In this document: positions 5,064-44,590 of the stretch, piece after piece | Numbering within the stretch: position 1 is the stretch's first letter | Layout of the letters: the number at the start of each line of letters is the position of its first letter | Origin: Rhizophagus irregularis | Lineage: Eukaryota | NCBI RefSeq assembly: GCF_026210795.1 | Contig: NC_089433.1 | Coordinates: 1,984,001-2,048,000 of the forward strand | Direction: 5' to 3' | DNA length: 64,000 nucleotides | Program-made: the position numbers and the translations under genes | Notes under the pieces: generated by a model | What the model was told of the DNA's origin: nothing | Databases searched by the model: none | Seen by the model: only the letters and a program-made list of their open reading frames with translations

Positions 5064-5112
5064 TAAAACACAATGATAAAAACAGTCGGGGAGTAAAAGT
5101 TAAAGAAGAAAA

Positions 5113-7235: not shown

Positions 7236-7430
7236 AGTAGAGGGCTTTGAGTTGGGAATATATAAAATATAAAATTTTATTAGTAGCTTGTATTATTTTT
7301 TTTAAAAATAATAAAAAAAAATTATTTTCGTCGAAAATTTTCGTTTTTGAAAAATTCAGGAGAGAGTTACTCGCTAGTTAAAAACCAATATATCGGGTAG
7401 CAGATATGTATCAGATATGTACCCGATATG

Positions 7431-8147
7431 TAGGGATGGTTAGGTCGGTCCTGATCTAGTCCTGGTCCTGGGACCTATAAGTCCTATTGAACGGACCTGC
7501 GGACCAGGTCCTGTTAGGACCAGTCCTGGACCTGGTCCCAGGACCTGGTCCTGACTAAGTTATTTATAGATTTTATGAATTTTAGTAATAATTAAATACA
7601 AAAAAAGTGAGTTGCGATATCGGGATTCACTTTTTTATATTGATTTTATATAAAAAAAGTGAGTTGCGGTATCGGGATTCACTTTTTTATATTGATTTTA
7701 TATAAAAAAAGTGAGTTGCGGTATCGGGATTCACTTTTTTATATTGATTTTATATAAAAACAGTGAGTTGCGGTATCGGGATTCACTTTTTTATATTGAT
7801 TTTATATAAAAAAAGTGAGTTGCGGTATCGCGATTCACTTTTTTATATTGATATTAATATAAAAATGTGAATCGCAATATCGCAACTCATTTTTTATATG
7901 ATTTTAATAATATAAAAATTGTATTGCAATATTGCAGTGCACTTTTTTATAATTTATAATTACTTAAAATCAAATTTACAGCAAATTATACATATATAAT
8001 TTAAACATATAGATCTCTTATAACCTTATTGGCTAGGACTTTTTAGGACCTGGTCCGCTTCTGGTCCAAAATTTGGACCTAAAGATCTGCAGACCAGGTC
8101 CTAGGACCAGGTCTTTAGGTCCAGGACCTAGGACTTTACCATCCCTA
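7431..8147. mobile_element. hAT-like MITE
   Basis: TIR TAGGGATGGT/ACCATCCCTA; 8-bp TSD CCGATATG (7423-7430, 8148-8155); many subterminal GGACC/GGTCC motifs. Confidence 0.88.
7600..7900. repeat. 52-bp tandem repeat, about 5-6 copies, inside the MITE
   Basis: gtgagttg recurs at 7607, 7659, 7711, 7763 and 7815. Confidence 0.9.
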
Positions 8148-9800
8148 CCGATATGTGTAGTATTAATGCAGAAAATCGGGTACCCGATATATGTAAGATA
8201 TGTGTAAATATATATATCGTCTACATATTATTTACATATCATATATATATCGGTACCCGATATATATATGATATATATATTTACATATATCTTACACATA
8301 TCGGGTACCCAATTTTCTGCATTAATACTACACATATCGGGTACATATCTGATACATATCTGCTACCCAATATATTGGTTTTTGACCAGTGCAGGTGGGC
8401 TTTCATGTTCTGAAAAACAGAAAAACTAAGATTTATAAGTAAGTACGAATCTTGGTTTAATTTTTTTAATTTTTTTTTAATATTAATGAACAGTTACTAA
8501 TAACCGTTCTTTCTTTTTTTAAGCTTCGGGTGGGCTTCTGATTTTCGGGAAAAGAGGAACCAAGATTTGTAAGTACGAATCTTGGTTTATTTTTATATAT
8601 ATATATTTTTTTAATATTATAAACGATTACTAATAACCGTTCTTTACTTTTTTTTAGGTTCGGGTGGGCTTCCAAAGAACGGAAAAGATTCTTTAACGTC
8701 AAAAATTTTTTTTCTTTAATATTATGGCTCATCCTACAGAAGAATGTGATCAAAACGCTACGGTCTATATCAGTAACCTTTGATGAATATTGTACTGAAA
8801 CTCTGATTTAGGAGTTAATACTTCTGGCAGAGGACATGTTGGTAATTTTCACTCTCTCTGCTTATTTTATTTTGTTATAAATTCAGCATTACTAATCAGA
8901 AAATATATTTTAACTTCAAGTCAATGTTCATTTACCAAAAGATTGCATAACTCAAACACATCAAGATTGAGTTTTGTGAGTTTACGAATAAAGATGATGC
9001 AGATTAAAATAATGAATCAAATCAAGTTGTATGGGAAGCCTATTCGTGTTAATAAAGTAGGCAGTTTGTTTTTATTGTTTGTTGTGTAGCATACTCAAAT
9101 ATTGATTTATTTTACAATATTTTTAATTTAGATTGCATGAGATCCCGATACTGGTAATTAGTAAAAGATATGGGTTTATTTCATATATTTTTTGGTTTTT
9201 TATCCGAAATTTCTTTTTATTTCTTTTTTTTTATATAAATACTTTATTTATTTTTTAGATACACTTTTTTTTATAGGATGCTGAACTCAAACGAACAAGA
9301 CAGCAGGACAGGTAAATGGGGTGAATGGTATGTGTTAATTAAGGAATGTTTCTAATGTTCTTTTTTTTTTTTGTAGCACTGGACTTTTGGAATGGACTTA
9401 GCTTGATGAGGTAAAGTGAGAGTAGTGTTTTTTTTTAAATTTATTTTTAAGAAACGTTCTAATGTTTCTTTTTCTTTTACTATAGAGACGCTGGCTTTTT
9501 GGGGTTGAAATGGACGAATTAGACTTTATGCTGATGAGATAAAGAGACTTAAAGGAGGATAGGAAGCGTTTATTTTTAATTTTTCTAAATTTTTCTATTT
9601 TTAGGACATTTTACAGCATTAAGATTGTGATATTAAAACATTATAATGGAATTATGATATTACGGCAGAATTATACAAAAAGTTATACAACTATCAGATT
9701 GTGGAAGATTCATTTCTCTTTTTTATTTTTTAATCTATTTACATTTATTTAATTGATTAATATTGAAATTTTGCTTTATTTTACTTTCTCAGGGACATTA

Positions 9801-10334
9801 CACAGGTCAAAAAGTGAAAAATCAGGCACCAATCAGTCACCAATCAGGTAGCTGATTGGTGACTGATTGGTGACCGATTGGTACCTGATTGGCATTTTCG
9901 ACAAATACCATCACCAATCAGGCAGTTTGCTAACTTTTGATCCAGTGATCAGAAAAGAATGAAATATAGCTCATTGGAATCGTCTCAACAAGACGAATCT
10001 AATGGTAGTAATATCATATTTCTAGGATTAATACTTGATGAGAAATTAAGTAAAATATAAAAATAAAAATGTATCATTTATATTTTATTTAATTTTTTAT
10101 TAACTATTAATCCTAGAGATGCGATTTTACTACCATTAGATTCGTCTTGCTGAGACGATTCCAATGAGCTATATTTCATTCTTTTCTGATCACTGGATCA
10201 AAAGTTAGCAAACTGCCTGATTGGCGATATTTGGCGAAAATGCCAATCAGGCACCAATCGGTCACCAATCAGGTACCTGATTGGTGACCGATTGGTGACT
10301 GATTGATGCCTGATTTTTCACTTTTCGACCTGTG
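9801..10334. mobile_element. Foldback MITE, nearly palindromic over its whole length
   Basis: Ends CACAGGTC.../...GACCTGTG; TTA on both sides (3-bp TSD); arms contain repeated ccaatcag/ctgattgg. Confidence 0.85.
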
Positions 10335-11403
10335 TTATTTCTAATATTTTAATTTTTTTTTTGATATATATATATATATATATTGCTTCTAATTATTTTT
10401 TTTCTGAAATGTTTCTTTTTTTTATAGTACAATTTTATTTCATGATATCCTTTAAAGATAACTTCAGAATTTTATAGATTTTTTACTAAAAAGATATTAA
10501 AGATATTAAATCATATGAGCCAATCCTTAGAATCTAATTTTTTTACACAAAAATAATTTTATTAAAGCAAATATAAATTATCATTTATATAAGAATAATA
10601 AATTTATACTAGATAATGCAAAAAAAACTAATTAATTATATAATTTTTAATTTTTTTTTAATATAAGATATCATTAAAATTTAAAAGATCAAATATAACT
10701 CTCATGATAAAATCATTGATAATTCTTCGTAGAAATAAGCTATACAAATAAATTTACATTCATTTAAAAGAAAAATTGAGATCTATCTAATGAATCTAAA
10801 ATCAAATGAATTGAATCACTAGTTGCTCAGTAATCACATTCAGTATATTTATTGAATTTTATCTAAATTTGATCATTAATTACTTCACATGTAGTGATTC
10901 AATTTGAATGATAAATTTAAAATAATTCGTTTATATATAGATGTTTAGGAATCATCAATTATATTAATAATATAAAATTTTATATGTTTAATAAAATCTG
11001 ATATAAAAAAATTTATTAAATACCTGTAGATGCAAGCTACACAAATGAAATTATATTCATTTGAAAATTGAGGTCTATCTAATAAGCCTAAAATCGAATA
11101 AATTGAATCACTAGATTGTGAATAATTACGTCTAATATATTTATTTTTAATTTTTTAAATTTGATTTGACTTTGATCGTTAATTACGCCTCATCCAGTGA
11201 TCCAATTTTCCTGATCTTTGATTTTTACAATAGAGCAAATTCTCAGCTTTCAAATGAATGTAAAATGATAATGTTAGCATATCTCCAGGAATAATAATGC
11301 ATGATTTTGTCACCTGCATAAAGTTCGATCTGAAAATTTTATTTCTTACCAAAAAATGCTTTCATAAGAGAATCCCAAATTCTTTTACTTTATTTAAAGG
11401 ATT

Positions 11404-11463
11404 AGTAGATAGATTAAGTAGACATCACTATATATATAGTGATGTCTACTTAATCTATCTACT
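11404..11463. repeat. Perfect 60-bp terminal palindrome, left (candidate telomere-resolution site)
   Basis: AGTAGATAGATTAAGTAGACATCACTATAT|ATATAGTGATGTCTACTTAATCTATCTACT. Confidence 0.97.
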
Positions 11464-12817
11464 TACACCATAGTGATGCCTACTTATAGATATTAATGCC
11501 TACTTACTTATTTTTAGGTGTCTATGCCCCTTCTGATGCTTTATTGCTACCCATCTGTTTTCACTAGTCTGTGACTGTTTGGTTGCTTTATAGATATTTG
11601 CTTGATTTTATTGTTCTGCCATCTTTTTACTGCCTTGTAACTATTTGCTTGTTTTCATTGCTCTGTAGCCTTTTTGTGGCCAAAATGCTTGGCCGGCCTT
11701 GATTGCTAAAAATCATGTTGTGATCGGGTGGCGCAGTAAATTTGCTAATCAGATTTTGGCCGGCATTATGCTATATTTTTGACCTAATCTTTAGGGCGGA
11801 ATATCTTGGCTTCCTGTGATTGGATTCATGCGGTTTTAAGCTCGTTCTGATGAGGACGTTGAGAGCTTTCCAATGATGCTAAGATCGCATGAATCAGATG
11901 CCTGGATGCCGAGATATTGCATCCTGAAATTTATGCAAAAAAAATATGGAATAGTGCTAGCCGAAATTAACGAAATTCTACTGCGCCTACTGCGTTAATC
12001 ATGTGATTCAGTTTCTCGCCAGTTCCAGGCACTTTCCCGTCACTTTCTCGCAACCTTCTTGCAACTTTCAAGGGATATTCAGGATTCGATCTGGTGTATC
12101 AGTTGGTCGGAGATTTGGAGATGCCTATTTGATTGCCGGATGAGGCACAAAGTGCCGAATTTGCAATCCATCTATTTGCCGAAGACATTTCACAATCCAT
12201 TTCCTCACTTTTTGATTGCCAGGGATGAGGCACGAAGTGCCGAATTGGTGACCTAGATGTGCAATCCTGCCTTCCATAACCCTTTTGATTGCCGAGAATG
12301 AGGCACAAAGTGCCGAATTTGTGCCCATTCTTGCAATCCCGCCCTTTATATGCCCTTTCTGATTGCTGTGTGAGGCTCATGCGAAGTGTCGAATTGGTTC
12401 AGGCTATATCGCTTTCATATCTTTTTTCGTGTATTCTCCTGAACCTTTCTGCCTTTCCAGTCTCTTTCCTGCCTATCGGTGGTAGGCCACTCAAGTGAAA
12501 TTTCTCTTTTCTTTCCTATATATAATTCTGCTTGAGTGGGTTACCATAAACTTGCTTGTTTTCGCCTTCTAGCTCTTGTTCCTGTATAGTTTCTACTCTG
12601 GGATACTTTGGAGTACTACTACATCGATTACTTTTAGGCATTATTATATTGATTACTTTGGGGTACTACTACTGACCCAGTATTTTGCCCACGCTAGCAA
12701 GCATATTCGCTCAAAATTATATAGAATTTTTATTTTGAACTTTGCTAGTTTCTCTGTTATTTTATACTGCTTTCTTGCATATACACCATGCTTCTTGCGC
12801 AAAAAAATGCTGGGCCT
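11404..12817 (+). repeat. Left TIR (1,414 bp)
   Basis: Reverse complement of 40682-42095; about nine substitutions seen by eye; mirrored ORFs in the track. Confidence 0.97.
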
Positions 12818-15800
12818 CACCCCGGAGTAATAAAGCTTTTCTCAAGCTTAACTGACCTTAATTATAAGCCTGGTCATAATAATCATGTGTATTTCCAAAA
12901 CTTGTCTATCAGTAAAGATGATGTCGCTCTTCTAGATACTTATGATCCTGAAGAGATTTTAAATAAATATATAGTTCGGGTTGCAGGAAAGGGCTTTACA
13001 GTAGTCGATCATCCATCCGAAGTTTATGGGTTTCCTGATGCTCACGAGTGCATTGATGGGAATTTGCCTCTCCGTCTGGTTCTAGATATTGATGCGAGGC
13101 AAAAGCCCGATCCCATGAATCCTAAATTTCCTTCCTTAGATGAGAGTAAAATTTCTCGTGAAGATTTATTATCCAAAATCTTAATTGCCTGTGTCGATAT
13201 TATAAATACTGATTTAAATTTTGCAATATTAGATGCTTTTACTTTAGCCAGCTCGTCTAATGCTAATAAATGCAGTTGGCATATTGTATATAAATATGCA
13301 CGGTTTATTGACTACAGAGATCTTAAGGGTTTTGTGGAAAAAGTCGCTGATAAGGTTGGAAAACCATACTCAAAGTTTATTGATATTGGACTTTATAAAT
13401 ATCGCTTTAGTCTCCGGCTCCTTGGATCAGCAAAGGAAGATAGAGTTAAAAGACCTGCGATTTCTTCAGTTAAGAAAGGATATCACAAACTAGAAGATTA
13501 TTTAGTTCAGCCTAAGTGGAACGCTTCTGAAATCTGGCCACAGACCTTTTCTCCTGAGAAAGAAGAGAAGAAATTTCAGCCCATCGAAGATGAAACCGCC
13601 TTAAGTAACGGAGCCAGCTTAGTTATCGCAAAATATGGATGGCTTGAGATCAGAAAAATTGGGAATGGATTTGTCCACTTTCAAGCCCAATTATATGAAG
13701 CATGTCCTATTTGTGAAATCAAGCACGAAAAGGATCAGTTATATGGCTTTCTTCGAAGTAATGGCTGTTTTGTACTCAAATGCTATCGGCAGAAAATTAT
13801 AAACCAGATCATAAAGGATTAGCATTTGGAAAAGTGATCAAAATTTCTGCAAAACCTAAGCGAGGAATAGTCGAAAGAATAGGTGATGCTATATCAAATC
13901 CACGCCCCCTTGTAGAATTATCAGAGACAATGATTAATGTAGAAAAATTAAAGGATGCTCCAGAAGTATATCCCGATTTCTTGGGTATTAAGAAAATGAC
14001 AACACTTATTCGTTCTCCTCTGGGAACATGGAAAACCACTACATTAAGAGAGATTATTATGGCATTGAAAAATAAGATACATGATCTCTCTTCTTTGCCA
14101 TGTTATATCTGGGTTTCTTACCAAAAGTCTCTTAGTAATGAATCAAAAACGAAACTTGATGAGCTAAAAGCATCTGGTTTTCGAATTTGCAATTATCAAA
14201 ATATACAAGGAGACTTATCTATAAATGAGTGGGATATTATCATAGTACAGGTTGAGAGTCTTTTCCGTATCGAGTTTACAGCCCGTCCATTTGTAGCTAT
14301 TCTTGATGAAGCTAATGCCATTATGCGTCAAATGTTTAGCGGTACAAATGCACGAGAATCTGAGAATGCAATACGTGATGTACTAAGATCTGCGAGACAT
14401 GTTTTGGCCATGGATGCTTTTGCAAATAAATCAACACTAACCTTCCTCCAGACTTATCGTGGTGAAAATATTTGCATAGTTGATAATAAGTATCAGCCTC
14501 GTATAGGTGAGACAGTTGAATTTATTTATGATCCGAATAGCGGAGCTGAAGCCATGCGAATAGGATATGATCTTTTGAGGCAGGGCAAACGTGTAGCATT
14601 CGTATCTACTGGAGCAGTGATGGCTAGAGCGTTAGTAGAAAAAGCATCTAAGTTGTTTAAACCCGACAATTCTCCTGTTAAAGCCCGTGCATATTATGGG
14701 AATATGGATGGGAAGCAGAGACAAAAAGACTTCTCTAATATTGATGTTGCTTGGGGTGAGCTTGACTGTGTAGCTTACACAAATACAGTGGAGGCGGGAA
14801 TATCATTTGAGGTTACGGGCCATTTTGATATAGTTATAGCTATTACAAACATCACCACTCCAGTTCATGTTGAGGCTCTTGCGCAAATGCTTTATCGAAT
14901 TCGTGACTGTCCTTGTCGTATTGTTTCTGTGTTTTATCAAAAAAATTCTAATGAACTTTTTCGTCCACCAGGTCGTGAAAATATCCGAGCAGAACTTGAA
15001 AGTGCTCGACCTAATAATTTGCCTACATCAATAAAGGGTCACTGTGAATGGGATAGCAACGCCGTTTCTTATAAAATCGATGAATCTCCTGCTGTAATAA
15101 CATTTGTCGAAGTTGAGCATCAGAAACGGCTTTCTGCGAGATATTTTATTGAGAAGCTTTGTAGTCTTATAGCCAGTACTGGTGCTTCTCTCCAACTAAT
15201 AAAAATGGATGAGAGCCGAGGAGTTATAGGGAATCGTAAAAAAGTCCGCAATGAGGTTAGAGTTGAAGCACTAGTTATCAAGGAAACAGATTTTGATGCA
15301 GTTGCTACTTCCCGAAATCTCGATCCTGAAGAAGCTGAAAATCTTAAGTTTGACCAAGAACGCTCTATCCCAGATACTATGGCACTTAAACGTTTCTATA
15401 TGCGAAATATTTATGGTAAAGATATAGACAATGAGATTTGGGATAATCTTTGCAATAAAAAGTTTGTAAAACATTTCAGTCCGCCCGAACCTCGGAAACA
15501 TTTCTTGTGGTTATCTCACTTTAGAAAGCAAGGCTATGATGAGGAAAGTGCAATGAAAGGGTTAGAGGTCAAAGATATTGCGCAATGGGAAGATAGCCAT
15601 TATAAAGCTGGTTATAATTCTGAGAAATCAATAGCAGAGGACTTGCACAAATCATATTCAGCTAATCATTGGAAAGTTATAAGGGAACTCTTTCAAATAC
15701 TAGGCTTTACCGGCATAGATGATAAGCGTATTCTTTCCAGTAATATAATATCAGAAACATTCACACAATCCTGCGAGAGGTTTATAAAAGTCCTGGATCA

Positions 15801-16095
15801 ATCCCTATTACTCTTCGGATTTAAGTCTCGTGCTAAGGTAACATCGGATCTTAATTCAGCTATAAGGGCAATTAATGCAATTGCTGGAAATTGGTGTGGC
15901 TATACTGTAAAGATAAATAGGAAAAAAATAGGGCCTAAAGAAAAACAGGTTTGGGAACGTTCATATCAAATTAATCGGCAACCATATGATGGTCTTGGTT
16001 TTGGAGATAAAGGTACGCCAGAGCTTCCACCATATAGGCCGAAAACAGATAATGATATTCAGGAACTCTTTGATTCTATAGGGCAAGACAAATAA
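12788..16095 (+). CDS. AEP primase-polymerase + zinc-binding domain + UL9/origin-binding-protein-like SF2 helicase; one frameshift near 13795
   Basis: AEP motifs LVLDID, SWHIVY, IDIGLY; zinc ligands CPIC..H...C; helicase RSPLGTWKT, LDEAN, AMDA, YTNTVEAGISF, QMLYRIR; the two ORFs overlap at 13780-13822. Confidence 0.85.
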
Positions 16096-16120: not shown

Positions 16121-16387
16121 CTAAGTCTTGACCATATCTGATTCTGTTTTAGTTTTTTTACTTTCGCGCCAGGCATGGTCATAAATTCCACCATGTGTGC
16201 TACAGATTCCAGTATCGGAATAGGTTCCCATCTTACAAACAGGGCATATTGTTCTAGGACGGGCATAAAAATGTCTGGAACATCCTAATTCGCTCATGCA
16301 CCCTTTTCCACAAATCGAACCATCTCTCTTGATATATTGGCAGATAAAACGACCCATACGAGGTAATTTTGATACTAATAATCTCAA
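16121..16387 (-). CDS. Small Cys/His-rich putative zinc-finger protein
   Basis: CQYIKRDGSICGKGC...CSRH...CPVC...CSTH. Confidence 0.6.
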   Translation of the reverse strand: MRLLVSKLPRMGRFICQYIKRDGSICGKGCMSELGCSRHFYARPRTICPVCKMGTYSDTGICSTHGGIYDHAWRESKKTKTESDMVKT

Positions 16388-16479
16388 AACTTCATCTTCA
16401 CTTTTATTATAGATATTTAAAATTCCTTTGCTTTAGCGGGTCAGCTTAGTAACCGCGTCTTCGGCCAAAGTTACAAACC

Positions 16480-17004: not shown

Positions 17005-18322
17005 ATGTCTACTGTAGAACCCACCCAAAAGACCCGGAAAGCGAAAACTAATAAATTTGTTTTGATTCTAGAACAGTTCTTAGAAATATATAACTTATCC
17101 GCAGAGTCCAGCCCAGAGCAATTAAGCGAACATGCCCTGAACTTAATGCTTTACTTCCAGATTGGAAGGCCCGTAAGTGCGTTAAGGAAGCCCTTGCGAG
17201 AGGCACTGAAAAGAGAAGTGCATTTAGCAAAGAGCAGAAAGAGGCTCTCGTGCCAGATCAGAGAAATATAATATATTCAGTCAGGAAAAGGGCTCAAGAA
17301 GTCACTAAAAGTGAAGATAAGTGGGATATTTTTATTAATACTTTAGATTTGGGACCAAAAGGAAGTAAGGATGGAGTAATTGATGATAAGGAAATGGTTG
17401 CTTCTAGCTCAAACCAATCACGATTTCGTAAGTATTTAGCAGAATACGGGGCCGATCGTGAACTTATTGATCGCTATGCCAAAGATTCAAAGACCACTAC
17501 AGCTTCCAATAAAATCCAGCAAGAGCGGACTGAGAAGCGCTTGGCTAATCCAGGTAGAACTCCAGAACATTTCACCTTTGAGAAAGTGCATAGGAGACTC
17601 CAGAATATCGATACTTCTAAAATTCCCTCTATGCAGGATCTCGCGGATGTGAGAGTGATGCTGATACGATGAGGCCTGCTGAAGTATCATCTCTCCAGAT
17701 TATTAATTACAAACCAGATTCCGAAGATCCGCCAGCGTGGTATAAAGCTGGTTATTCTTGGTATTGCACTGGATGTCGCAAACAGAGAGATAAACCGATG
17801 CCTATGCGCTTACTCTCTATGGAAAAGGATCCAGAACGTGCTAGGGAATTACTTACCTGGATTCAAGACGCTATTAAGGCTGGGAAGTTGCGTGATCCAG
17901 TTTATACTGAAACTGGAAAGCGTAATAATGTGCCATTTGCCAAATTCATAAAGAGTTTAAAAACTAATCAGGACGAAGATGAGATTACCCCCGAGCTTCT
18001 AAGAAAAATAGGAGCTAAACACGCCTCGATGATTCATGCCGGTCCAAATCCAACCCCTCAACATCTCGACAATCTTTCAGAAATCGCATTAAGACATAAA
18101 ATTAACCGTCTTGATGCAGGAAAAAATTACGCTTTGGGTGATCCAAAATCAAAGAAGGAGCCCAAATCTGAACCAGAGACAGGTGATGGTCCAAACCCCC
18201 AAACACAGGCTTCTTCACCTGCATCTCAGTCTAGAAATAACGATCCAAAAAAGTCTCAGACTATGGATATGGATTCAATGTTAGCAGAAATCGATGCAAT
18301 GTTAGCTGAAATTCGGAAATAG
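17005..18322 (+). pseudogene. Tyrosine recombinase, protelomerase/telomere-resolvase-like; two frameshifts (about 17136 and 17668)
   Basis: Ordered catalytic-type motifs MRPAEV (R), TGCRKQR (K), LLRKIGA (R), IALRH (H), AGKNY (Y); three ORFs join into about 440 aa. Confidence 0.72.
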
Positions 18323-20672: not shown

Positions 20673-21101
20673 TTTTAGTGTTATGTAGCGCTATAGTCGC
20701 AATTTTTATGTATTGTAAGCCGGCTTCCGGCAACGTTTTTATTTCATAAATAAAGTATTTTTATCGAACGTTATGAGAAACGGGTCACGTCTAATGAAAT
20801 GGGGTGCGAACCCGATCACTATGTAATATCGGACTATAAATCTAACCAATCTAGCCTATATAAAAAAGCGTAGCACTATATCAGGTGATAAGTGAGAAGA
20901 GTCTTCACAGTTAGGGAGGCGCAGTGATTAGGCGTTCGTTGCACCATGCAATTGCTGATCATACGGCAGGCTTGTGAAACAGAATAATTTCTCACATATA
21001 GTGCTCACTCAGTATTCAATAAAATTCTTTTTACTCTTGTCCTCATATACCGCACTTTGAGCCAATAACATTTCGCAAAAAATACTATATAAGTCGGAAA
21101 T

Positions 21102-22816
21102 ATGTCTATCACTTTATTCTGTCTCGTTAAAGGAAATACAACCGCGAACGCTTTCTCTGTTAAAATAAACAGGGACGAGCCTATTAGTGAACTCAAGGAC
21201 GCTATTAAGGCAAAAAAGTCACCAGAGTTCGACAATTTTCCTGCAGACAGGCTCAGGCTATGGAAAAAGGAAATTCCTGACGATCAGGACGATCTCTTAA
21301 GCAATCTCATTCTCAATGACGAACCCGAGCTCCTTGCAACAAGAGAAATTGGAGACTACTGGACTGAGAAACCGCCTAAGAGGCATATCCATGTTATTGT
21401 AAAATTGCCCCGTAAGTGTCTGGAGTGTCTGGTATAGTCTAATTTTTCGTCATTTGCCCTTGTAATATTAACACGCATTCGTTTCCAGTTCTCAGCTTGG
21501 AAGAGGCGTTGTCGTGTATTCCACCACCCATAACATATTCTCCGGACTGCGTTACCTCGAAGACCACTACTAAGGCTGTAGGTGACCCGCCGGCAAGTGT
21601 GCAACTTTGGGGAGACTTTTTCGAGCAAGTGAACAGCTTTCATTTCGACCAACAGCCGATATTCGAGAGGCCGAGATTTAATGATAGATTTGCTGTGGTC
21701 GATGAAGAGGATGTTCGTAATGCCATAAATGTTAATATTTGTATGATATTGAATGATCTTACAGGACCAGACTACGTATATTCAAGGAAATCTACTGACA
21801 CTCCCGGCATACCAGATTTCAACTGTCATCTCGTGGGTTCATTGATCTTGGTGATGGAAGCTAAAAGAAAACATGTTTTAGAAGATATGGGGGAACAAAC
21901 ATTTCCCGAATTTTATCAGACGAGTAAAGGCAAGGATGTAGTTCAACAAATCTATAATTATATGGGAGGAAACGAACTTAGATATGGTATTCTCTCCACC
22001 TATGATAATCACTGGTTTCTACTCCGAGAGCATACAGAGCTCCGGATCTCAAAAACCCTCCCACTTCAATCTGAAACTCCACCTGTACTCAAGGCATATG
22101 CTTATCTAACTCGACGGGCGAAAGAGAATCCCAAGTCTCCTAAACCTCAAGTACTAGTGCCGGCTCATGGAGACAATAATTCACGTAATCTTCGGTCACA
22201 TTCGAAATCGACTTCCAGCTCCTCAATAGATCAACAATCAACTTCCGGCACTTTTGCAAATCAACAATCGTCTTCTAACATCCCAGTAAACCAGCAAAAG
22301 TTTAGCTTCGCGGACTTCAAGTTTAAGGGCATACTAGGTGAAGGACGAAGTGGTAAAACACTCCTTTGCGAGTTTCGTGGCGATACGATTGCTTTGAAGA
22401 GCGTAGACTTGTCGAAGGCTCCATCGTATGTTCTGAAAGAAATGCAGAAGGAAGTAGAGATTTACAAGGAACTCGCTGATATCCAAGGCAAGTATATCCC
22501 GAAGTTGGTCTGTTATGGATATTATGGAGGAGGTATGAGCTTCGTTATCGGCATGACTATTGTCGGCACTTCGTTGAGCGACCAAAAAATAAAGAAACAG
22601 CAAAAGACAAGGGCTATTAAGGGATTAGAAGCGATCCACAAGCATGGCATCCTCCACAATGACATTCGGGAGGAAAACATCTTAATTAACGATGACGGTG
22701 GCGTCTATCTGATTGACTTCGGTATGGCAAGTCGGGAGGACACAAAAAAGAAGAGAAAGCTTTTCGAGGAGGAACAGCTCAAATACTCTAACTTGCTAGA
22801 TAGATATAATACGTAA
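21102..22816 (+). CDS. Crinkler-family effector-like protein: N-terminal header + restriction-endonuclease-like domain + protein kinase; intron 21412-21488
   Basis: MSITLFCLVKG, LRLWKK, HIHVIVKLP; the GTAAGT...CAG intron restores the frame; PDF...MEAKR; LGEGRSG, ALK, HNDIREENIL, DFG. Confidence 0.9.
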
Positions 22817-32045: not shown

Positions 32046-32322
32046 CGACTGAGAAATATATTAATTATAGACTATTGAAGATTAATATCATTTAGCTAAA
32101 AGCGCAATGTATAACTTATACTTTATTTTTTATGCTAAATAATCTGCATACATGATCGCCTAGTAAAATTGGTTGAAGGCGCTATACATTTCATGTATCA
32201 CCTGCCAAATTTTTCAGATTAGTCCTTAACCCAGATCCTGGTTAAGATCATGCGCTTTCTGAAGATTGATATAAATTGATCCAAGGGGTTCTCCCATTCT
32301 CTTTTATAATCACAAAAAAAGA

Positions 32323-34783
32323 ATGTCATTTCACAAATCTCACCCAAGGCAGAGAAGAACATGTGAAGAATATAAAGCTGAGCTGGAAGAAGAGAACTAT
32401 CATCTTCATAGTGAATTGCAGATAGAAGTTGATACTAATCGCCAGAATGAGAGACGAATTAATCAACTGGAACGGGATTATACCCGATGTGAGCAAGAAA
32501 TTCAAGATCTTAATAAGGAGATAGAGCGTCTTGAAAATGCTTCGAAAGAAGAGATAGTAGAGTTAAAATCTGAAATCTCTACCCTAAAAAGTCAGCTATA
32601 TCAAGCTAGGAATGATGTGCGAGATAAGGGAAAATATATTTCTAGTTTAGAAGAGCAGTTAGTAGAATCTGAGGAACAAGTTAAGAAATTGCGATGCCGG
32701 ATCAGAAGCATCTCATCACGAAAAAATTCGCCTGAACGAGGGAATTCTCCAGACTTGTATAATTCTGATGATAATATGGCCACAATCACAGAGCTAGCAA
32801 ATGCTATAGATGGTTATGTGGATAATAGAACAACAACTAGGGATATTCTTATAGACCAAATAAAAAGAGCTACAAGGCAGATACGCCGAAAAGAAAATAA
32901 TTTGCATCAGGATTTAGTCCGTGAGCAACGAAGGCGTTATGATGCAGAAGCTGAACGTGATAATGAAATTATACGAAGGCAACTTGCTGAAGGTAGGATA
33001 ACTAATGTTATTGGTGATCTCCATCAATATCAAACTAATACTCAAAACCAGGTAAATAGAATGATAGGTAATATGGCAAGAAAACAAGCCCGTATAGGTG
33101 TGCTGGTACAAGAAAAATTTGCCTTACAATTATTGTATCAGCGAAATGCCCACCACTTACAGCGAAGTAGAGGGGATATAGGTCTGTTAGAATTTAATCG
33201 AGACAGGCTCTATGAACGATATGAGAAATGGAAAAATAAGACCCAAGCAGAGCGCCAGAATAATTTAAATTTACAGGGACAAATTTTGGCGCTTCAGAAT
33301 AATCCACCTAATCAAGTAAACATGGCAGGAATACCTCATCCATATTTCAACTGGGATGATAGTATCCCAGACTTTCTTGCACAACTTAGACTAGACTTGC
33401 AGAATCGGGGAATAGATCCAAATGATAATGTAGCAGGTCCTCCAACAGGAAGAGATAATGCAATAGGACATTTAAGAGCCTGTATGAGAGGAAGGACTTT
33501 AGAATGGTTCGATGATGAGATTACTACAAAGCAGAATTGGGAGCTAACTAACTTACTCGATAATACAGGGCAGGCTAACTTAGTTGCAGTAAATGGGCGA
33601 ACTGCAGTACAGATAGGGGCTAATGCATTAAATGAGGCTGTTGGCCAACCAGGAAATGCAATAGTCAAGTTAAGAGCTGTAGAAGATGCTTGGAATGAAG
33701 ACTGGCGTATAGCAGGTGGCCGTCCTACTAATGATCCTGTAAATGCACCAAATGCTAATGCTGAAAATACAGTAGTTGTAGCTGGTATTCGATTTGGTCA
33801 AGCCGTATGGTGGCTAAAAACTCATTTCCCTACAGTAGAAGAGGAACTTCGGGATTTGATGTATGGAACAATCAGAAAGGGAGACATGACTATAGATGAA
33901 TTATATAGAAAAATATTACGAATAGGTAGACGAGCCAACTATAGACCTGAAGAATTACGTAGAAAGTTCTTAGATGCTTTACCACTTTTATGGCTTGAAA
34001 AAGCTGAAGATATTGGTGAACATTTGCCATTAGATGAATTAGCTAAAAAGCTTTATGAGATAGAATTACGCCGAATAGCTAGACATAAAAGAGATAGAAC
34101 ATCTGATCCGCTAGTATCTAATCGAACATCTTGGCAAATATATGAACCTTCACCTGTTTCAGCCTCACAACAGCATGGAATATCTTTCGAAGATATGCAA
34201 AAAGCAATCCAGAATGCACTAGCACAGCAAAAAACTGAATACCAGTCTTTATTAGAAAAACAAAAAGCCGATTTCCAATCACAAATGGTCCAGCAAACTA
34301 AAAAGATACCTCCACCAGTTCCTCCTAAAAATATGGAACAGCTTCTTAATACATATGAAAGCGCTAATCCTTTCCCTGATACACTTACTAGGGAAGAAAT
34401 AATGAGAGTGGTCGCAAAAGCTTATGGGCCACCTCCTAAACCGCAAAAAGCCAGAAAAGTTGCAATCATCTAGAATCGATAGATTAGAGTCAAAAATAGA
34501 TGAAATTGGTCAAATGACATCTAAGTTTGGTAGGATATCACTTAATGATCAATCTCGAAAGCCTTTTTATTGCAGTAATTGCGGACAGGAAGGGCATAAG
34601 AAAAACAATTGCTCAAGGTTAAATCCTGTAGCTAAATCCAATTTTACTCAATGTTACTATCCTCAACTTCCATCTACACAGCCCCAATATACGCCTCCAG
34701 ATTCAGATAATGAGGAAGATGGTTATGATAAAGTAGAAAATGCGTGGTATTATACACCTGAAAAAAAAAACAACTACCACTAA
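32323..34783 (+). CDS. Gag-like polyprotein: coiled coil + capsid-like region + CCHC knuckle; frameshift near 34455
   Basis: FLAQLR...WFDDEI; TIDELYRKILRIG...LRRKFLDALP resembles a Ty3/Gypsy capsid C-terminal domain; CSNCGQEGHKKNNC in ORF 34424..34783. Confidence 0.72.
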
Positions 34784-35358
34784 ATGATATGTTACCTCTA
34801 GAGTCCAGTCAGCCAAAAACATATGATGAATTATTTCCAAAACTTTCACCGGTAATGCGAAAAATGTGTCAGTCTCATACAGTTCAGAAGAAAGAATCAA
34901 TATCAGATGAGTGGTTTTCATCATTACAATATCTGAATGCTAAAATAGATGATTTAACGATCTCTAATTCTTTTTTAGATAGTGCAAGTGAGTTCAGGGG
35001 AGCGAATGATGCAACAATTAATGCCCTTGGGTGGAAAGCTGATAAGCCATCGGACTTCGCAATAAAAGGTAATTCCAAACACATTACCGATTCATTGGGA
35101 TGGTTTACTGATGTACCAATCAGTATAAAGGATAAGGATGGTAAAACTGTCACAGCTACTGGAAATTTTACTCGTATTGATAATGGAGAAACCGAACCAA
35201 TGTTATGTTTAGGTATGACATGGATTAGGAAAGTTCAAGGTGTCCTCGACCCAAATAAAAATCAATTCCGAATGAAGTTACATGGGAAAGCTTACATTAT
35301 CCCAACTTTTAGCAAAGCTCCAGAAGTTGAAGATCCGCCAAAAGAAGATCAGGACTAA
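34762..35358 (+). CDS. Retropepsin-like aspartic protease, probably expressed by -1 frameshift
   Basis: FLDSASEF (DSG-like) and LCLGMTWI (LGxxW-like); frame is open from 34762, across A_AAA_AAC. Confidence 0.75.
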   Translation, partial: KKKQLPLNDMLPLESSQPKTYDELFPKLSPVMRKMCQSHTVQKKESISDEWFSSLQYLNAKIDDLTISNSFLDSASEFRGANDATINALGWKADKPSDFAIKGNSKHITDSLGWFTDVPISIKDKDGKTVTATGNFTRIDNGETEPMLCLGMTWIRKVQGVLDPNKNQFRMKLHGKAYIIPTFSKAPEVEDPPKEDQD

Positions 35359-37394: not shown

Positions 37395-38183
37395 TCAATC
37401 ATTTTGCCAATCCTTTAAAGGTTTGTCCCATCTAAATCTAATTGATAAGGGGTCATCAGATGGTCTTTGGATATCAATAACCACGAAATGTTTTTTTATC
37501 ACTTCATAAACTTTTTTTGCTAGAGGCTCATAATCATCATACATATCTTTAAGAATTCGTTTTATACTATCTAATGTTCCACATCCACGATGCAGCGAAA
37601 TATATTTAAAATTTCTGCGTATATTTTGATGGATTTCATAGAAACGCTGGGCAATATAAATTGAGCTAATTCCTTCATGTCTGCCTGATCTAAAGAAAAG
37701 AACAATTTTTAGCTGAGTTGCCAAAGGTTCCCCAGCAAGATCATCAAAGACTATAACAGTAGATCGGCCAGTTCTTTTGAAAGATGAAATATCAGATAGA
37801 TCTTCAGGTGCGATTAGCTTGAATCTCACATTTTCATACCATGGAGCTTGCTTATCCATGGCTATAAATTCATAAAAACATTGTACTACTTCCCATAGCT
37901 CATCTTGGTGTTGCGCAACAACAATTAGATCATTACACGGAATATATCTTTCACCAAAATTTTTGCTTCCGCCTTTTGGTATTTTATGACCACGTTTTTC
38001 ACCAGACATCCATGGATATACTTTTGGATATTTACTTCCTAGGAGCTGATGTACTACCATCTTTGTCTTTCCTGACTCAGAGGTGCCCGCAACTCCTAGT
38101 CTAAATGGAAGTTTAGGAGCAAATGGATTCTGTTTTTTCGAAGGTACAGTTTCGTCTAATTTGCATAGCTCGTAATACTCCAT
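37395..38183 (-). CDS. A32/FtsK-HerA-type DNA packaging ATPase (Polinton/virophage-like)
   Basis: Walker A GTSESGKT; Walker B IVFDDL; FRSGRHEGIS; IAQ...IRRN; ATG at 38183. Confidence 0.88.
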   Translation of the reverse strand: MEYYELCKLDETVPSKKQNPFAPKLPFRLGVAGTSESGKTKMVVHQLLGSKYPKVYPWMSGEKRGHKIPKGGSKNFGERYIPCNDLIVVAQHQDELWEVVQCFYEFIAMDKQAPWYENVRFKLIAPEDLSDISSFKRTGRSTVIVFDDLAGEPLATQLKIVLFFRSGRHEGISSIYIAQRFYEIHQNIRRNFKYISLHRGCGTLDSIKRILKDMYDDYEPLAKKVYEVIKKHFVVIDIQRPSDDPLSIRFRWDKPLKDWQND

Positions 38184-38314
38184 AGTTTTTGAAAAGCTAG
38201 GATACTTATTCAAGAAACATATTTTTGTTAACCGCAAGGAAAAAAGTGCCCTAGCTAATAAATAGAATCTGACTTTATAGATGCTAGCTTTTTTTCGTAA
38301 TTATAAAAATTGGA

Positions 38315-39526
38315 ATGGGAGAGCGTCAAGTCGAAAGACCGGTTATTTATATCGATCCTCAAAAAGCGCGAGAGCTAAATCAAATCATAGCAAAACAAAT
38401 ACCTACGATTAATATCGATTCCCAAAAAGCTCATAATTTAGACCAGCATCTTGCCTTGCAAAAACTATATTATTGTCCTGAAGGTCTGTATCAAAATGTT
38501 AAGGGATTGTGGGATGCTTGTAAAAAAGCCGGCTACAGCTTTCTATTTATTAATGTAAAAAAATGGCTTGAGGGCCAAGCAATGTATCAAATTTTTCGTC
38601 CTTCACCAAAGCATATACCTTATGCCAGTTACTCTAAAATCACGAAGCCAAATACTGTACACCAATGTGATTTAATCAAAATACCATATGATGAAAATGT
38701 GGATACAAATTTACTAGATAATGATGGCCCAATATATTACTATGTACTATTGGTTATAGACTGCGCGACTAGATATAAAGATTTCATTTTTTTAACATCA
38801 AAAAGCAGTGAGGAAGTTGCGGAAGCATTTAAGAGTATATATGATAATCCTGATAAACCTCTTAACTGGCCTCGAAAATTGCAATGTGATAAGGGCACTG
38901 AGTTTATGGGATACGTGACTTTATTAATGGATGAACATGGCGTTGAGATCCGAAGAATTATAGCACGTTTCAGGCATACAAGTTTCGCAATGATCGATCG
39001 TTATGCTGGATTATTCGAATATAGAGTTTTTAAAAATCAGTATTCAATAGAGTTTCTCCTACCTACTGGCAAGCGCTGTAGAGAATGTGAGCGGTTTGCA
39101 AGAAAAATTGTTGATAATATGAATGATAGCCCAACTCGATTGATTGGGATGAGTCCTAATGACGCCACAAAACTTGAGCAGATATATTCCAAACCATCAG
39201 TAAAATATAATCGCTCAATAGGTGTTGATGAACCACAACTACCAAAGGGTACTACTATCCGATTTTTGCTCGCTCCTGGAGAGTGGGAAAACGATCCTTT
39301 CGAACGACGCAGAATAACAGATCCGATATGGTCTCCCAGCCTGCATAAGATTCGGAAAATTGTTGTTGGAAAGAATCCTCCAATGCCTATTTTATATTAT
39401 TTAGATGAATCAGGACCCCAACGCCCTTTCGTGAGAGAACAATTGATGCATATTAAGGAAGAGCCCATGTTACCTCCTAGGTGGGTATTGGGAGATAACC
39501 GAATGCGTACAAGGCGCTCTTTATAA
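38315..39526 (+). CDS. Retroviral-like (rve) integrase, Maverick/Polinton type
   Basis: HQCDLI, VIDCATRY, LQCDKGTEF, MIDR (D at the usual E position); N terminus LYY...VKKWL; intact 403-aa ORF. Confidence 0.92.
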   Translation: MGERQVERPVIYIDPQKARELNQIIAKQIPTINIDSQKAHNLDQHLALQKLYYCPEGLYQNVKGLWDACKKAGYSFLFINVKKWLEGQAMYQIFRPSPKHIPYASYSKITKPNTVHQCDLIKIPYDENVDTNLLDNDGPIYYYVLLVIDCATRYKDFIFLTSKSSEEVAEAFKSIYDNPDKPLNWPRKLQCDKGTEFMGYVTLLMDEHGVEIRRIIARFRHTSFAMIDRYAGLFEYRVFKNQYSIEFLLPTGKRCRECERFARKIVDNMNDSPTRLIGMSPNDATKLEQIYSKPSVKYNRSIGVDEPQLPKGTTIRFLLAPGEWENDPFERRRITDPIWSPSLHKIRKIVVGKNPPMPILYYLDESGPQRPFVREQLMHIKEEPMLPPRWVLGDNRMRTRRSL

Positions 39527-40016
39527 AAGTTTCTAAGTCTACTACACAGTAAGGGATTGTAATAAGGATTACTCCTTTCCGATAGCATAACACTTTCTTT
39601 TTCCAATCACGCCAGATTTGTGCATCTAGATCCATCTGCCCTTGCAGGTGAAAAAAAGGGACGATTTGATAGTGCTGATTACCGCTATATTCAAAAGCCA
39701 AGCCTAGCTCTTCATTATATCCATCTAGATGTAATCCCTCCAAGAATTTAGGTTTTCGGAGAGGAAATTTTTTATGCGATAAATCCTCAAATATATACCG
39801 GCATGTTCTTTCTGGTACATTAGGACAAATATTGCACCATCTATAATTCTGTTTCATATTTTTATATGGCGCCTCCCATTGATGGCCTTTTTTACATGCC
39901 CATAAATATGTATTAGGACTAACTTTAGCTAAGCATCTTCCTTCACGCTTTTGGGCATATGCCAAAGCTTTAGTATTAATATCATCTTGCATTTTATAGG
40001 TACAATAGAATATCAC
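39477..40016 (-). CDS. Zinc ribbon + PD-(D/E)xK/Vsr-like endonuclease
   Basis: WACKKGHQW...WCNIC; LHLDGYNEELGLAFEYSGNQHY. Confidence 0.78.
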   Translation of the reverse strand: MIFYCTYKMQDDINTKALAYAQKREGRCLAKVSPNTYLWACKKGHQWEAPYKNMKQNYRWCNICPNVPERTCRYIFEDLSHKKFPLRKPKFLEGLHLDGYNEELGLAFEYSGNQHYQIVPFFHLQGQMDLDAQIWRDWKKKVLCYRKGVILITIPYCVVDLETFIKSALYAFGYLPIPT

Positions 40017-40243
40017 GTACAGAAATTTGCGGTAGTGATCATTAGCTCTGGACTAGTTTGGCCAGAAGAATCGATCTGGATATATGCAAATCCAGGTGCA
40101 AGTTCGAAAGTAAAATTAAACTTGGCTACTACTATTGCATAAGTAAAAATAAATATCGCCAGTATTCTTAGCAGGAAGTGGCAATTTCGGCTAAGAGTAC
40201 TTGACAATACAACTCAACAATCTTGTCTATATATTCGCTCTTT

Positions 40244-40711
40244 TTATGTATTATTGATATTATCAAGTAGATCGATATCTTTTAACAATTTTTTCGTTTG
40301 TTTATAAAGATTTTGCCATTGTACATGAAATTTGTTTCGTAAGACAGAAGACTTAATAAGACAGGGAAGAATACTTGTAAGATTATTTATATGGGATTTG
40401 ATTACTGCATGAACATTTGCAATTTTTTCTCCTGCTGTAATCCAATCATAATACAGAGTATAAAGAACTGTATGAATACGGGTTATTTCTTGTTTACTCC
40501 AGTTTAACCGATATTTTATAAAATCAAGATCTTCACGAAGTTCCCTTTCTTTTTGCTTTAAAATAACTCGAAATGCTTCAAAATTCCATTGATGATTTAT
40601 AGTAAGACAGGAATATAGTATATCTTTAATCTTGAGATTACTAAAAATTAATTCAAGCAGTTCAGAACAAACAAGTGGGCCAGGCCCAGCATTTTTTTGC
40701 GCAAGAAGCAT
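40244..40711 (-). CDS. F-box protein
   Basis: SELLELIFSNLKIKDILYSCLTINHQWN; starts inside the right TIR. Confidence 0.7.
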   Translation of the reverse strand: MLLAQKNAGPGPLVCSELLELIFSNLKIKDILYSCLTINHQWNFEAFRVILKQKERELREDLDFIKYRLNWSKQEITRIHTVLYTLYYDWITAGEKIANVHAVIKSHINNLTSILPCLIKSSVLRNKFHVQWQNLYKQTKKLLKDIDLLDNINNT

Positions 40712-42095
40712 GGTGTATATGCAAGAAAGCAGTATAAAATAACAGAGAAACTAGCAAAGTTCAAAATAAAAATTCTATATAATTTTGAGCGAATATGCTT
40801 GCTAGCGTGGGCAAAATACTGGGTCAGTAGTAGTACCCCAAAGTAATCAATATAATAATGCCTAAAAGTAATCGATGTAGTAGTACTCCAAAGTATCCCA
40901 GAGTAGAAACTATACAGGAACAAGAGCTAGAAGGCGAAAACAAGCAAGTTTATGGTAACCCACTCAAGCAGAATTATATATAGGAAAGAAAAGAGAAATT
41001 TCACTTGAGTGGCCTACCACCGATAGGCAGGAAAGAGACTGGAAAGGCAGAAAGGTTCAAGAGAATACACGAAAAAAGATATGAAAGCGATATAGCCTGA
41101 ACCAATTCGACACTTCGCATGAGCCTCACACAGCAATCAGAAAGGGCATATAAAGGGCGGGATTGCAAGAATGGGCACAAATTCGGCACTTTGTGCCTCA
41201 TCCTCGGCAATCAAAAGGGTTATGGAAGGCAGGATTGCACATCTAGGTCACCAATTCGGCACTTCGTGCCTCATCCCTGGCAATCAAAAAGTGAGGAAAT
41301 GGATTGTGAAATGTCTTCGGCAAATAGATGAATTGCAAATTCGGCACTTTGTGCCTCATCCGGCAATCAAATAGGCATCTCCAAATCTCCAACCAACTGA
41401 TACACCAGATCGAATCCTGAATATCCCTTGAAAGTTGCAAGAAGGTTGCGAGAAAGTGACGGGGAAGTGCCTGGAACTGGCGAGAAACTGGATCACATGA
41501 TTAACACAGTAGGCGCAGTAGAATTTCGTTAATTTCGGCTAGCACTATTCCATATTTTTTTTGCATAAATTTCAGGATGCAATATCTCGGCATCCAGGCA
41601 TCCGATTCATGCGATCTTAGCATCATTGGAAAGCTCTCAACGTCCTCATCAGAACGAGCTTAAAACCGCATGAATCCAATCACAGGAAGCCAAGATATTC
41701 CGCCCTAAAGATTAGGTCAAAAATATAGCATAATGCCGGCCAAAATCTGATTAGCAAATTTACTGCGCCACCCGATCACAACATGATTTTTAGCAATCAA
41801 GGCCGGCCAAGCATTTTGGCCACAAAAAGGCTACAGAGCAATGAAAACAAGCAAATAGTTACAAGGCAGTAAAAAGATGGCAGAACAATAAAATCAAGCA
41901 AATATTTATAAAGCAACCAAACAGTCACAGACTAGTGAAAACAGATGGGTAGCAATAAAGCATCAGAAGGGGCATAGACACCTAAAAATAAGTAAGTAGG
42001 CATTAATATCTATAAGTAGGCATCACTATGGTGTAAGTAGATAGATTAAGTAGACATCACTATATATATAGTGATGTCTACTTAATCTATCTACT
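40682..42095 (-). repeat. Right TIR (1,414 bp)
   Basis: Reverse complement of 11404-12817. Confidence 0.97.
42036..42095. repeat. Perfect 60-bp terminal palindrome, right
   Basis: Identical to 11404-11463. Confidence 0.97.
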
Positions 42096-43029
42096 GGATT
42101 TTATTTGCCATTTAAGGATTTTAGTAGAATAAATCTAATAAAATAAATTTAAAAGATAAAAAACAAATATATAATTAGTTATTTTGAAAAAAAAAGAATA
42201 TCTTATTATTCATTTTACAACTATTTTACATCATAATTATTTTTTATTTGCATGTATTTTTTACAAAGAAAAAACAATAAATTAAAGCTAAAAATTATGA
42301 AAAAATATGTCTTTCTATGTATATAAAATATTAAGTTTTTTTTTTACTTACCACTTAAAAATAACTGCTATATTTGCTTATAAACTTTTTTTTCATATTT
42401 AATAAAAGTGAATAGAAAAATGATGGAAAAGTGATGGGCAGTGATGGGGAAAAAGAAGTGGTTATTACCGTTATTTTTAAATATTGATTAAAAAAATTTT
42501 TTTTATTTTTTATTAAATCTGAGTTATGTAAATATGTAACACATATTTAATTTAGATTTGTGTAATGTTAATTTTACTAAAATATTAAATTTTTATAAAA
42601 ATCTTAATTTAGACTAATTCCAAAAATTAGCACATATGTAATTAATTATAACGATAATGTATTTTTAAAAATGTTTAATAAAATATCAAATTAATGAAAA
42701 ATAAACTAAATAAAATTCAGAAATAAATCAGCTGGCTTTAGATTACAATTCTCATATATGAATACAGATCGAATCATTTACTAATGTAAGTCAAATATCC
42801 TTTCCGAATATAAGACGATTGGCACCCTAAATGTGCCCAAAAATTTGATCTCAATTTGATACAGGTTAGATCATCATTCGACCTATATTCGACCTGATCA
42901 AATTTAGGTTGAATTGTCCTATTTCAACTAGATAGTGTAACACCTGCTTTTCCAGAAACATTTTTATTTTACATCAGTCAATCACTCTGAACGTAACACA
43001 TTTTTTTATCTGAGTCTTATAATACATAA

Positions 43030-43580: not shown

Positions 43581-44139
43581 TATAATACCTGCTACTTCAG
43601 AGCTGAAATACGCAGTATAGACTAGGATAGTTCTGGATGATATGGTCTTAGCAAGTTATTAGCTTTTTTTGTATCGAATAAATAAAGCGCATGTATTCTA
43701 AATTACTAATCGCAGCCGCAGTTATGCCTGCAGCCGTAATATAGACTATTTATTTCTGATTTAGCTAGTCCAGATGTTGATCATATCAGCTTTACCAAAA
43801 TCATGTGATATACCAGATACTATTAATTCTGCATATATTTATAGTACAACCATTTTTTTTTTGTAGAAATCATCCCAAAGCATTACAACTGTTAACCTTC
43901 ATAGTGGTTTTCAATGTAGTACATTTTAGAGAATATGTTACTGGTGGAGAAATGCGTGAAAATGCCTCTTTCAGACTGAGAAACGGCCCTAAATACAAAG
44001 ATATTATATTAAGATAACTGTTTCATACACTTTGGAAATAATTCCTCTAAGTAACATAAGTGTAACTATGTATATTTTGGCCATTTTGATACTAGTAAAC
44101 ATAGTAGATATTACATCAATTATTATGATGAGGTTCCAA

Positions 44140-44590
44140 TCATTATATTCAGGAGCCATGCTGAGAACTGGAAATAAAAACGTGTAAATATTACAAGGGC
44201 AAAAGATGAAGAATTAGACTGTACCAGACATTTATGTAGCAACTTTACGATGCCTCTTAGGCAGTTTCTCAAGCCAGTACTCTTCTAATTCTCTTGTTGC
44301 AAGAAGTTCATCCCCATCATTGAGTGTGAGATTCCTCAAGAAATCGTCCTGATTATCACATTCCATAACTTTAAGTCCTTCACTTTGAAACCAGCAGGAA
44401 CATCTATTTCCGCTTTTATAGCTTTGTTGAGCTCACTAACAGGCTCGTCCCTACTAATTTTGAAGCATTCACAGTTGTATTACTCTTAACAAAGTAAGTG
44501 ATAGACATTTTTCAACTTATATAGTGTTTTTTGCGAAATGCTATTGGCTCAAAGTGTAACAAGAGTAAAAAAGGAATTTTATTTGCGAAT
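44140..44590 (-). pseudogene. Decayed Crinkler 5' region
   Basis: Inverted similarity to about 21020-21490 (upstream region, exon 1 and intron), with indels. Confidence 0.7.

Follow-up and report, generated by a model that had tools for sequence, protein, structure and literature searches.

The question raised by this locus is what a broken, recombinase-like gene does within a large mobile element of Rhizophagus irregularis. The gene lies in a stretch of 64,000 nucleotides (contig NC_089433.1, positions 1,984,001 to 2,048,000), referred to below as the window. Telomere resolvases, which cut a palindromic site with a 6-bp stagger and close the ends as hairpins, have been described in bacteria and phages and in a small number of giant viruses of algae. 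A sequence-only reading of the window had likened the gene to the resolvases TelN and TelK, and had proposed that its product acts on palindromes at the ends of the element, insertion being left to a separate DDE integrase.

The element is Polinton-like, 30.7 kb in length (11404–42095), and is bounded by inverted repeats of 1419 nt. Its features, in window coordinates, are the following.

11399..11403, plus strand: left target-site duplication, GGATT; empty site found in runs X10 and X11
11404..11463, no strand: left terminal palindrome, perfect, 60 bp; candidate tel site, centred on 11433/11434
11404..12822, plus strand: left terminal inverted repeat, 1419 nt
12788..13822, plus strand: primase-like N-terminal part of the replicase; AEP-type motifs by eye; weak match to the poxvirus OPG117 profile (E 0.011)
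13762..16095, plus strand: UL9/origin-binding-type SF2 helicase part; PF02399 5.8e-20; phrog_4913 6.5e-16; CyRepA1 5.3e-40, below cut-off
16121..16432, minus strand: small ORF rich in Cys and His, conserved next to the resolvase gene
17005..18322, plus strand: telomere-resolvase-like gene with two frameshifts; intact form 437–438 aa
17672..18130, plus strand: predicted catalytic residues of that gene; Arg 17672, Lys 17780, Glu 17993, Arg 18002, His 18095, Tyr 18128
21093..22816, plus strand: cargo; Crinkler N-terminal domain and protein kinase ORFs
32275..35358, plus strand: coiled-coil ORF, zinc-knuckle ORF (zf-CCHC, E 0.0009) and a third ORF
37395..38300, minus strand: A32-type ATPase; PF04665 9.7e-6; Walker motifs
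38288..39526, plus strand: rve (DDE) integrase, open frame; PF00665 7.9e-7, 29.7 bits, just under the cut-off of 32.6
39477..40052, minus strand: homing-endonuclease-like ORF; phrog_559 1.6e-12
40677..42095, minus strand: right terminal inverted repeat, 99% complementary to the left one; 11 differences, two of them at the inner edge
42036..42095, no strand: right terminal palindrome, perfect, 60 bp
42096..42100, plus strand: right target-site duplication, GGATT, 5 bp

It is apparent that the ends of the element are as the sequence-only reading described them. The terminal palindromes are perfect over 60 bp and identical to each other. Their perfect arm of 30 bp compares with at most 10 bp in 20 shuffles of the element, and no other perfect palindrome with an arm longer than 10 bp occurs in the interior. 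Parts of the arm recur subterminally in the left repeat, at 11475 and 11496. The DDE integrase and the target-site duplication were likewise found, as the rve frame and as GGATT on both sides. DDE integrases leave a short target duplication at insertion. The terminal repeats differ by less than 1%, which indicates that the family moved recently. In a divergent copy, the palindrome arm shows no difference in 27 bases as against 15 in 531, which is not a significant contrast.

Additional data on the ends were obtained from contigs of four runs. In two of these runs, a contig passes from the left flank, across one copy of GGATT, into the right flank of the window. This empty site fixes both the ends of the element and the 5-bp duplication; it may derive from a sister copy rather than from the same locus, as the flank is a high-copy repeat. 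Four contigs, from three of the four runs, continue from the palindrome arm, at 11463–11466, into unrelated sequence that differs in each case. These are read as other insertions with the same type of end, though they could also be the interiors of other elements. Two contigs cross the centre of imperfect variants of the palindrome. Contig stops near the palindrome centre (11419–11437) were considered as evidence for hairpins and were rejected, since assembly graphs treat any palindrome in this way and a replicated junction holds no 31-mer that is missing from the integrated copy.

Each terminal repeat contains a short motif, itself holding an inverted repeat, in three to four spaced copies (12145–12395 in the left repeat). 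Situated upstream of the replicase, these copies are candidate origin-binding sites. The primase-helicase gene (start 12788) and the rightmost ORF (40244–40750, minus strand, start 40711) both begin inside the repeats with the same first residues, and would therefore share a promoter. The Crinkler-kinase cargo (21053–21575) has an inverted relative, 72–92% similar, just outside the element at 43896–44556, which suggests capture of a host gene.

Elsewhere in the window, a LINE-like retrotransposon occupies 1788–7292 on the minus strand, with RRM, endonuclease and reverse transcriptase frames. MITE-like units of nested palindromic and tandem repeats with inverted ends are found at 9794–10341, 7374–8389 and 49156–50239, and a perfect 46-bp palindrome is found at 10252–10297. 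An ORF on the minus strand (45505–46299) matches the Tse2 ADP-ribosyltransferase family weakly (E 2.7e-5, below the cut-off).

The gene itself is spanned by three overlapping frames. Its frameshifts had been proposed from the letters alone, with their repair, or an intact homolog, recommended as a check. Such a homolog was found in P0292, a protein of 437 aa whose cluster has 41 members, with several copies of 438 aa. The first frame (nucleotides 17005–17145) corresponds to P0292 residues 1–47, with 43 of 47 identical; the second (17130–17666) to residues 43–221, with 174 of 179 identical; and the third (17663–18298) to residues 220–431, with 207 of 212 identical. This piecewise match, at 91–98% identity over the three pieces, places the two frameshifts near 17130–17145 and 17663–17666. 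Judged by its sequence, the window copy is inactive on account of them. The third frame is identical to one named R. irregularis protein.

Homologs of the gene are numerous. In total, 116 were found, and the named ones all belong to genera of the Glomeromycotina, including Rhizophagus, Glomus, Funneliformis, Gigaspora, Dentiscutata, Cetraspora, Diversispora, Entrophospora and Acaulospora. A profile search returned 493 representatives at E ≤ 0.001, of which 150 were listed, and several of the distant homologs are near 30% identity. Seven compact distant homologs (P0186, P0200, P0210, P0226, P0238, P0242 and P0247) retain every catalytic residue; their hosts may lie outside the Glomeromycotina. 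The protein ends in an acidic, disordered tail, and one clade carries an extra loop.

The four motifs on which the assignment had been based are all present, and all lie within the third frame: RPAEV at 17672, YCTGCRKQR at 17762, LLRKIGAKHA at 17996 and IALRH-x10-Y at 18083–18130. To assess conservation, 284 proteins of at least 150 aa were reduced to 91 by removal of sequences with an incomplete core and of those more than 95% alike. Among these 91 homologs, the residues expected to be catalytic are retained in 88 (R223), 80 (K259), 54 (K330), 79 (R333), 61 (H364) and 83 (Y375). They are among the most conserved columns, in homologs down to about 30% identity. The window copy has Glu, at 17993, in the position of Lys330, a substitution that the sequence-only reading had missed; the intact homolog P0317 retains the Lys. 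That position lies three residues before the second Arg. It is never occupied by His, so that the HxxR motif is absent from all 91 homologs; TelN and TelK likewise have Lys there and never His. H364 is replaced by Gln in 27 of the 91, and these form a whole subfamily that includes full-length, multi-copy members such as P0290.

The active-site residues given in the cited parts of PMC11317167 and PMC3558466 are K224, H324 and Y335 in ResT, and R255, K286, Y363, R366, H394 and Y405 in TelA. In a profile alignment over 226–228 columns, R223, K259, R333, H364 and Y375 of the fungal family fall in register with R199, K224, R296, H324 and Y335 of ResT. The alignment to ten resolvases scored 33.9 and was collinear over about 227 columns, whereas 16 control recombinases scored 25.5, over 82 columns, and none of 15 block shuffles exceeded 19.1. 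The profile-profile probability against the resolvases was 12–22%, and a local run with a second alignment gave the thin margin of 28.4 versus 23.2. The putative linker helix has a conserved Asn and Gln, without the Tyr/Arg pair of TelA. According to the cited part of PMC3558466, TelA requires this pair for hairpin formation, and the pair is not conserved among resolvases.

Conventional sequence searches gave no family assignment. The family matches no model in Pfam, PHROG or NCBIfam. PF16684, the telomere-resolvase model, was matched by none of 34 family members and by none of the window frames, and PF00589 by neither family members nor window frames; the Pfam models of Crypton-, DIRS- and Starship-type recombinases found no match among family members. 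When the third frame or alignment A1 was searched against the sequences of solved structures, the matches did not rise above chance level. In a language-model (Atlas) search, by comparison, the ResT/TelK clusters rank directly after the family's own clusters, and PF16684 is carried by 19+1 of the 30 matches and PF00589 by one.

Structural evidence was obtained from a model of the catalytic domain built on homolog P0003 (mean pLDDT 84.3), a protein that shows 93% identity to the third frame. Of 48,161 chains searched, the four telomere-resolvase chains are the only ones with a Z score of at least 8: TelA at 11.0 (rmsd 3.9, 163 residues aligned), TelA again at 10.6, TelK at 10.0 and ResT at 9.4, with an overall range in rmsd of 3.9–4.3 and in aligned residues of 139–169. 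The next tyrosine recombinase has a Z score of 7.1, and Cre and XerD, the comparison recommended by the sequence-only reading, score 5.4 and 4.9. Integrases, Xer, Cre and topoisomerase IB all rank after the resolvases (Z 7.1–3.7), in solved-structure lists that contained no Crypton or Starship enzymes. The top six Foldseek entries are all TelA (best E 7e-4), and the integrase of Tn1549 stands just above ResT. The best viral structure match is the telomere resolvase of the coccolithovirus EhV-86 (E 3.9e-3). All of these searches rest on the one P0003 model and are not independent of each other. Structural identity to the resolvases is 12–18%, at an rmsd of about 4 Å, and the catalytic Tyr sits in a region of lower model confidence (block pLDDT 64–81).

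An earlier, full-length model had a mean pLDDT of 59 in the catalytic half, and its search returned mostly helical bundles. In that model, the N-terminal helices (82–171) match TelA 130–216 with a Z score of 5.8, at rank 9 among unrelated helical bundles that score equally; the stretch is contiguous with the catalytic match at 217–400.

Taken together, three structure searches and the language-model search rank the resolvases above other tyrosine recombinases, and the catalytic residues that align with ResT fit the same assignment. A tyrosine-recombinase fold with telomere resolvases as its closest relatives is thus predicted for the homolog, and it is very probable, on this modelled structure, that the gene family belongs to the telomere-resolvase branch.

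The neighbours of the gene were also considered. Primase and helicase form a single protein in homologs, as one frame in metagenome locus L114, so the primase-helicase gene in the window must also be frameshifted, a point that had escaped the sequence-only reading. The helicase matches phrog_4913, the family that contains RepA of phage N15, and CyRepA1, to which the annotated neighbour of the resolvase on a linear plasmid of Shewanella belongs; pairwise comparisons with N15 RepA (E 0.78) and with the Shewanella protein (E 0.21) were not significant. In 52 metagenome loci, each of at most 4.8 kb, no element ends were found. Where more than 1000 bases were available upstream, a primase or helicase adjoins the resolvase gene in six of seven loci, in two arrangements; where more than 500 bases were available, a primase/helicase or the small Cys/His gene is present in 11 of 21 and neither in 10. 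In L107 and L114, which represent a distant clade, primase-helicase and resolvase genes are arranged head to head; in the window they stand in tandem. Viral contigs contained no relative of the resolvase, the helicase, the integrase or the palindrome.

The palindrome resembles the sites of N15, PY54 and HAP1 in its size and in its alternating centre. The N15 and PY54 sites measure 56 and 42 bp, and have alternating pyrimidine-purine centres like that of the fungal palindrome. For HAP1, 12 of the 14 central bases match, of which seven are independent, so that this is a weak hint.

From the predicted fold and the anatomy of the element, it is probable that intact members of the family cut the terminal 60-bp palindromes, their presumed target sites, at the centre and seal the ends as hairpins. 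The element would accordingly be a hairpin-capped linear replicon that is inserted by its DDE integrase. The proposed cycle would begin with exit from the chromosome, which is likelier to occur through cutting of the AGT...ACT ends by the integrase than through the resolvase. The resolvase would then turn each palindrome into a closed hairpin. Such hairpins would solve the end-replication problem for an element that has an RNA primase and a UL9-type helicase, and in which no protein-primed family B polymerase was detected by a Pfam scan of 25 element frames. Replication through the hairpins would produce inverted-repeat junctions about the same centre, to be resolved by the resolvase. If the integrase were to cut an unresolved junction 30 bp beyond the centre and insert the product, this would explain why an integrated copy finishes with a complete palindrome, the outer edge of which coincides with the terminus. 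The window copy could not run this cycle alone, since both its resolvase and its replicase are frameshifted.

Several other readings have to be weighed against this cycle. One of them is a variant that differs in the exit step: the resolvase itself would excise the element through both chromosomal palindromes, and the 30-bp stubs would then be fused. The presence of a complete site at both ends would permit release in a single step by one enzyme, but hairpin-capped chromosome breaks would be left behind unless the stubs were rejoined. No footprint in the form of a solo palindrome was found, and the empty site is without a palindrome, though it is perhaps a repeat copy that was never occupied. 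We regard this route as unlikely. A lower probability still is given to a resolvase-derived enzyme that acts like Cre between the palindromes and forms no hairpins, its role being to circularize the element, to excise it or to resolve dimers. According to the cited part of PMC13221069, ResT can form Holliday junctions and two substitutions switch TelA to Cre-like recombination, so the fold alone does not fix the reaction; the hairpin residues of TelA are not visible in the fungal family, and end modules of Polinton-like viruses pair tyrosine recombinases with primase-helicases (PMC11296320, in the part cited). Against it, the site is perfectly palindromic and lacks a directional spacer, which is the form of a resolvase substrate, and insertion left a 5-bp duplication of ordinary flanking DNA, for which an empty site exists.

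The palindromes might instead serve in fold-back priming or in integrase binding, the resolvase gene being a passenger from the replicase module with another site or none. The subterminal recurrence of parts of the arm, like binding repeats, would suit this account, as would the many broken gene copies and the subfamily with Gln for His. It is nevertheless rather improbable, because the catalytic residues are so well conserved across the family and the terminal palindromes are the only perfect ones of their size in the element. Finally, an ordinary tyrosine recombinase of the Crypton, DIRS, Starship or Polinton-like virus type might be the element's integrase. Tyrosine recombinases do come next in the structure list, the Tn1549 integrase precedes ResT in Foldseek, and the ranking extends over solved structures, with Crypton and Starship enzymes outside it. 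This reading is largely refuted by the structure ranking and the missing HxxR, and is very improbable; in addition, PF00589 finds no match, and a separate rve integrase with its 5-bp duplication accounts for insertion. The duplication and its empty site thus lend strength to the earlier view, in which a telomere resolvase was favoured over an integrase.

The hairpin-telomere cycle favoured here would, if correct, carry several implications. There is a somewhat better than even chance that the element represents an undescribed class of giant element in mycorrhizal fungi, an N15-type hairpin-telomere replicon combined with a retroviral-type integrase, that integrates from replicated telomere junctions. 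The individual parts are already known, and their combination was not found in print. No report of a protelomerase was found for Rhizophagus or for Polintons, nor any of such a system among titles and abstracts more widely, in a search whose scope stopped short of subscription papers, Repbase, supplements and the original 2006–2007 descriptions of Polintons and Mavericks, any of which could hold an earlier mention. A family of resolvases across Glomeromycotina transposons would extend hairpin telomeres to fungi. The element would be the first hairpin-telomere replicon in the nuclei of fungi, and its resolvase the first one known whose site also serves a DDE integrase. It would also provide a testable answer to how ends are copied in Polinton-like elements that lack a protein-primed polymerase. 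The link between AEP replicases and tyrosine recombinases is called 'more elusive' in the cited part of a 2026 preprint (10.64898/2026.10.13.758929). Among genes of Polinton-like elements that bear an "integrase" annotation, some may encode resolvases. If active, an enzyme whose sites are scattered over the chromosomes could cause breaks and rearrangements in the fungal genome, and a eukaryote-adapted resolvase with a new site would complement TelN as a tool for closed linear DNA.

In comparison with TelA, TelK/TelN and ResT (PF16684), the fungal family has the same predicted catalytic fold, possibly the same interdomain linker helix, the same order of catalytic residues, the His-x10-Tyr spacing of TelA H394/Y405 and ResT H324/Y335, and a candidate palindromic site of similar size. 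It differs in lying beyond the reach of the Pfam model, in its eukaryotic host, in showing no match to the muzzle and stirrup domains of TelK, and in its acidic disordered tail and the extra loop of one clade. Phage N15, a linear plasmid prophage with TelN, telRL and RepA, likewise has its resolvase next to a primase/origin-binding-type helicase, one that falls with the fungal helicase into phrog_4913. N15 is not an integrating phage and its single site is internal, whereas the fungal element has two terminal sites and a DDE integrase, and its primase, unlike that of N15, appears to be of AEP type.

Among eukaryotic systems, the phaeovirus elements of Ectocarpus (EsV-1, FsV-158 and EVEc) are also integrated and also have a telomere resolvase, with fold-back reads reported at a single internal palindrome (PMC13236599). 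Within the part of that paper cited here, the integrated systems described so far have one internal tel site rather than two terminal ones; the phaeoviruses are giant (about 350–400 kb), have a capsid and their own polymerase, and integrate through a circle by a separate tyrosine recombinase. The end modules of Polinton-like viruses, as presented in the cited part of PMC11296320, have the same order from the end inwards (repeat, primase-helicase, recombinase-fold gene); in those viruses the recombinase takes the place of rve and has been interpreted as an integrase, whereas the fungal element has both, and its enzyme is predicted to be of resolvase type.

With regard to Polintons proper, elements without a detectable capsid are described from Glomus intraradices (R. 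irregularis) in the cited part of PMC7805220, and Polinton-type A32 genes from fragmented Rhizophagus assemblies in that of a 2026 preprint (10.64898/2026.06.19.733378). The fungal element shares with Mavericks/Polintons its long inverted repeats, AG...CT ends, rve integrase, A32 ATPase, size (15–40 kb) and target duplication. Polintons usually have AG...CT ends and a target duplication of 6 bp, as against the 5 bp found here. The fungal element differs from them in that no protein-primed family B polymerase was detected, nor a capsid or protease by Pfam or PHROG among its frames, and in the addition of a resolvase gene and terminal palindromes.
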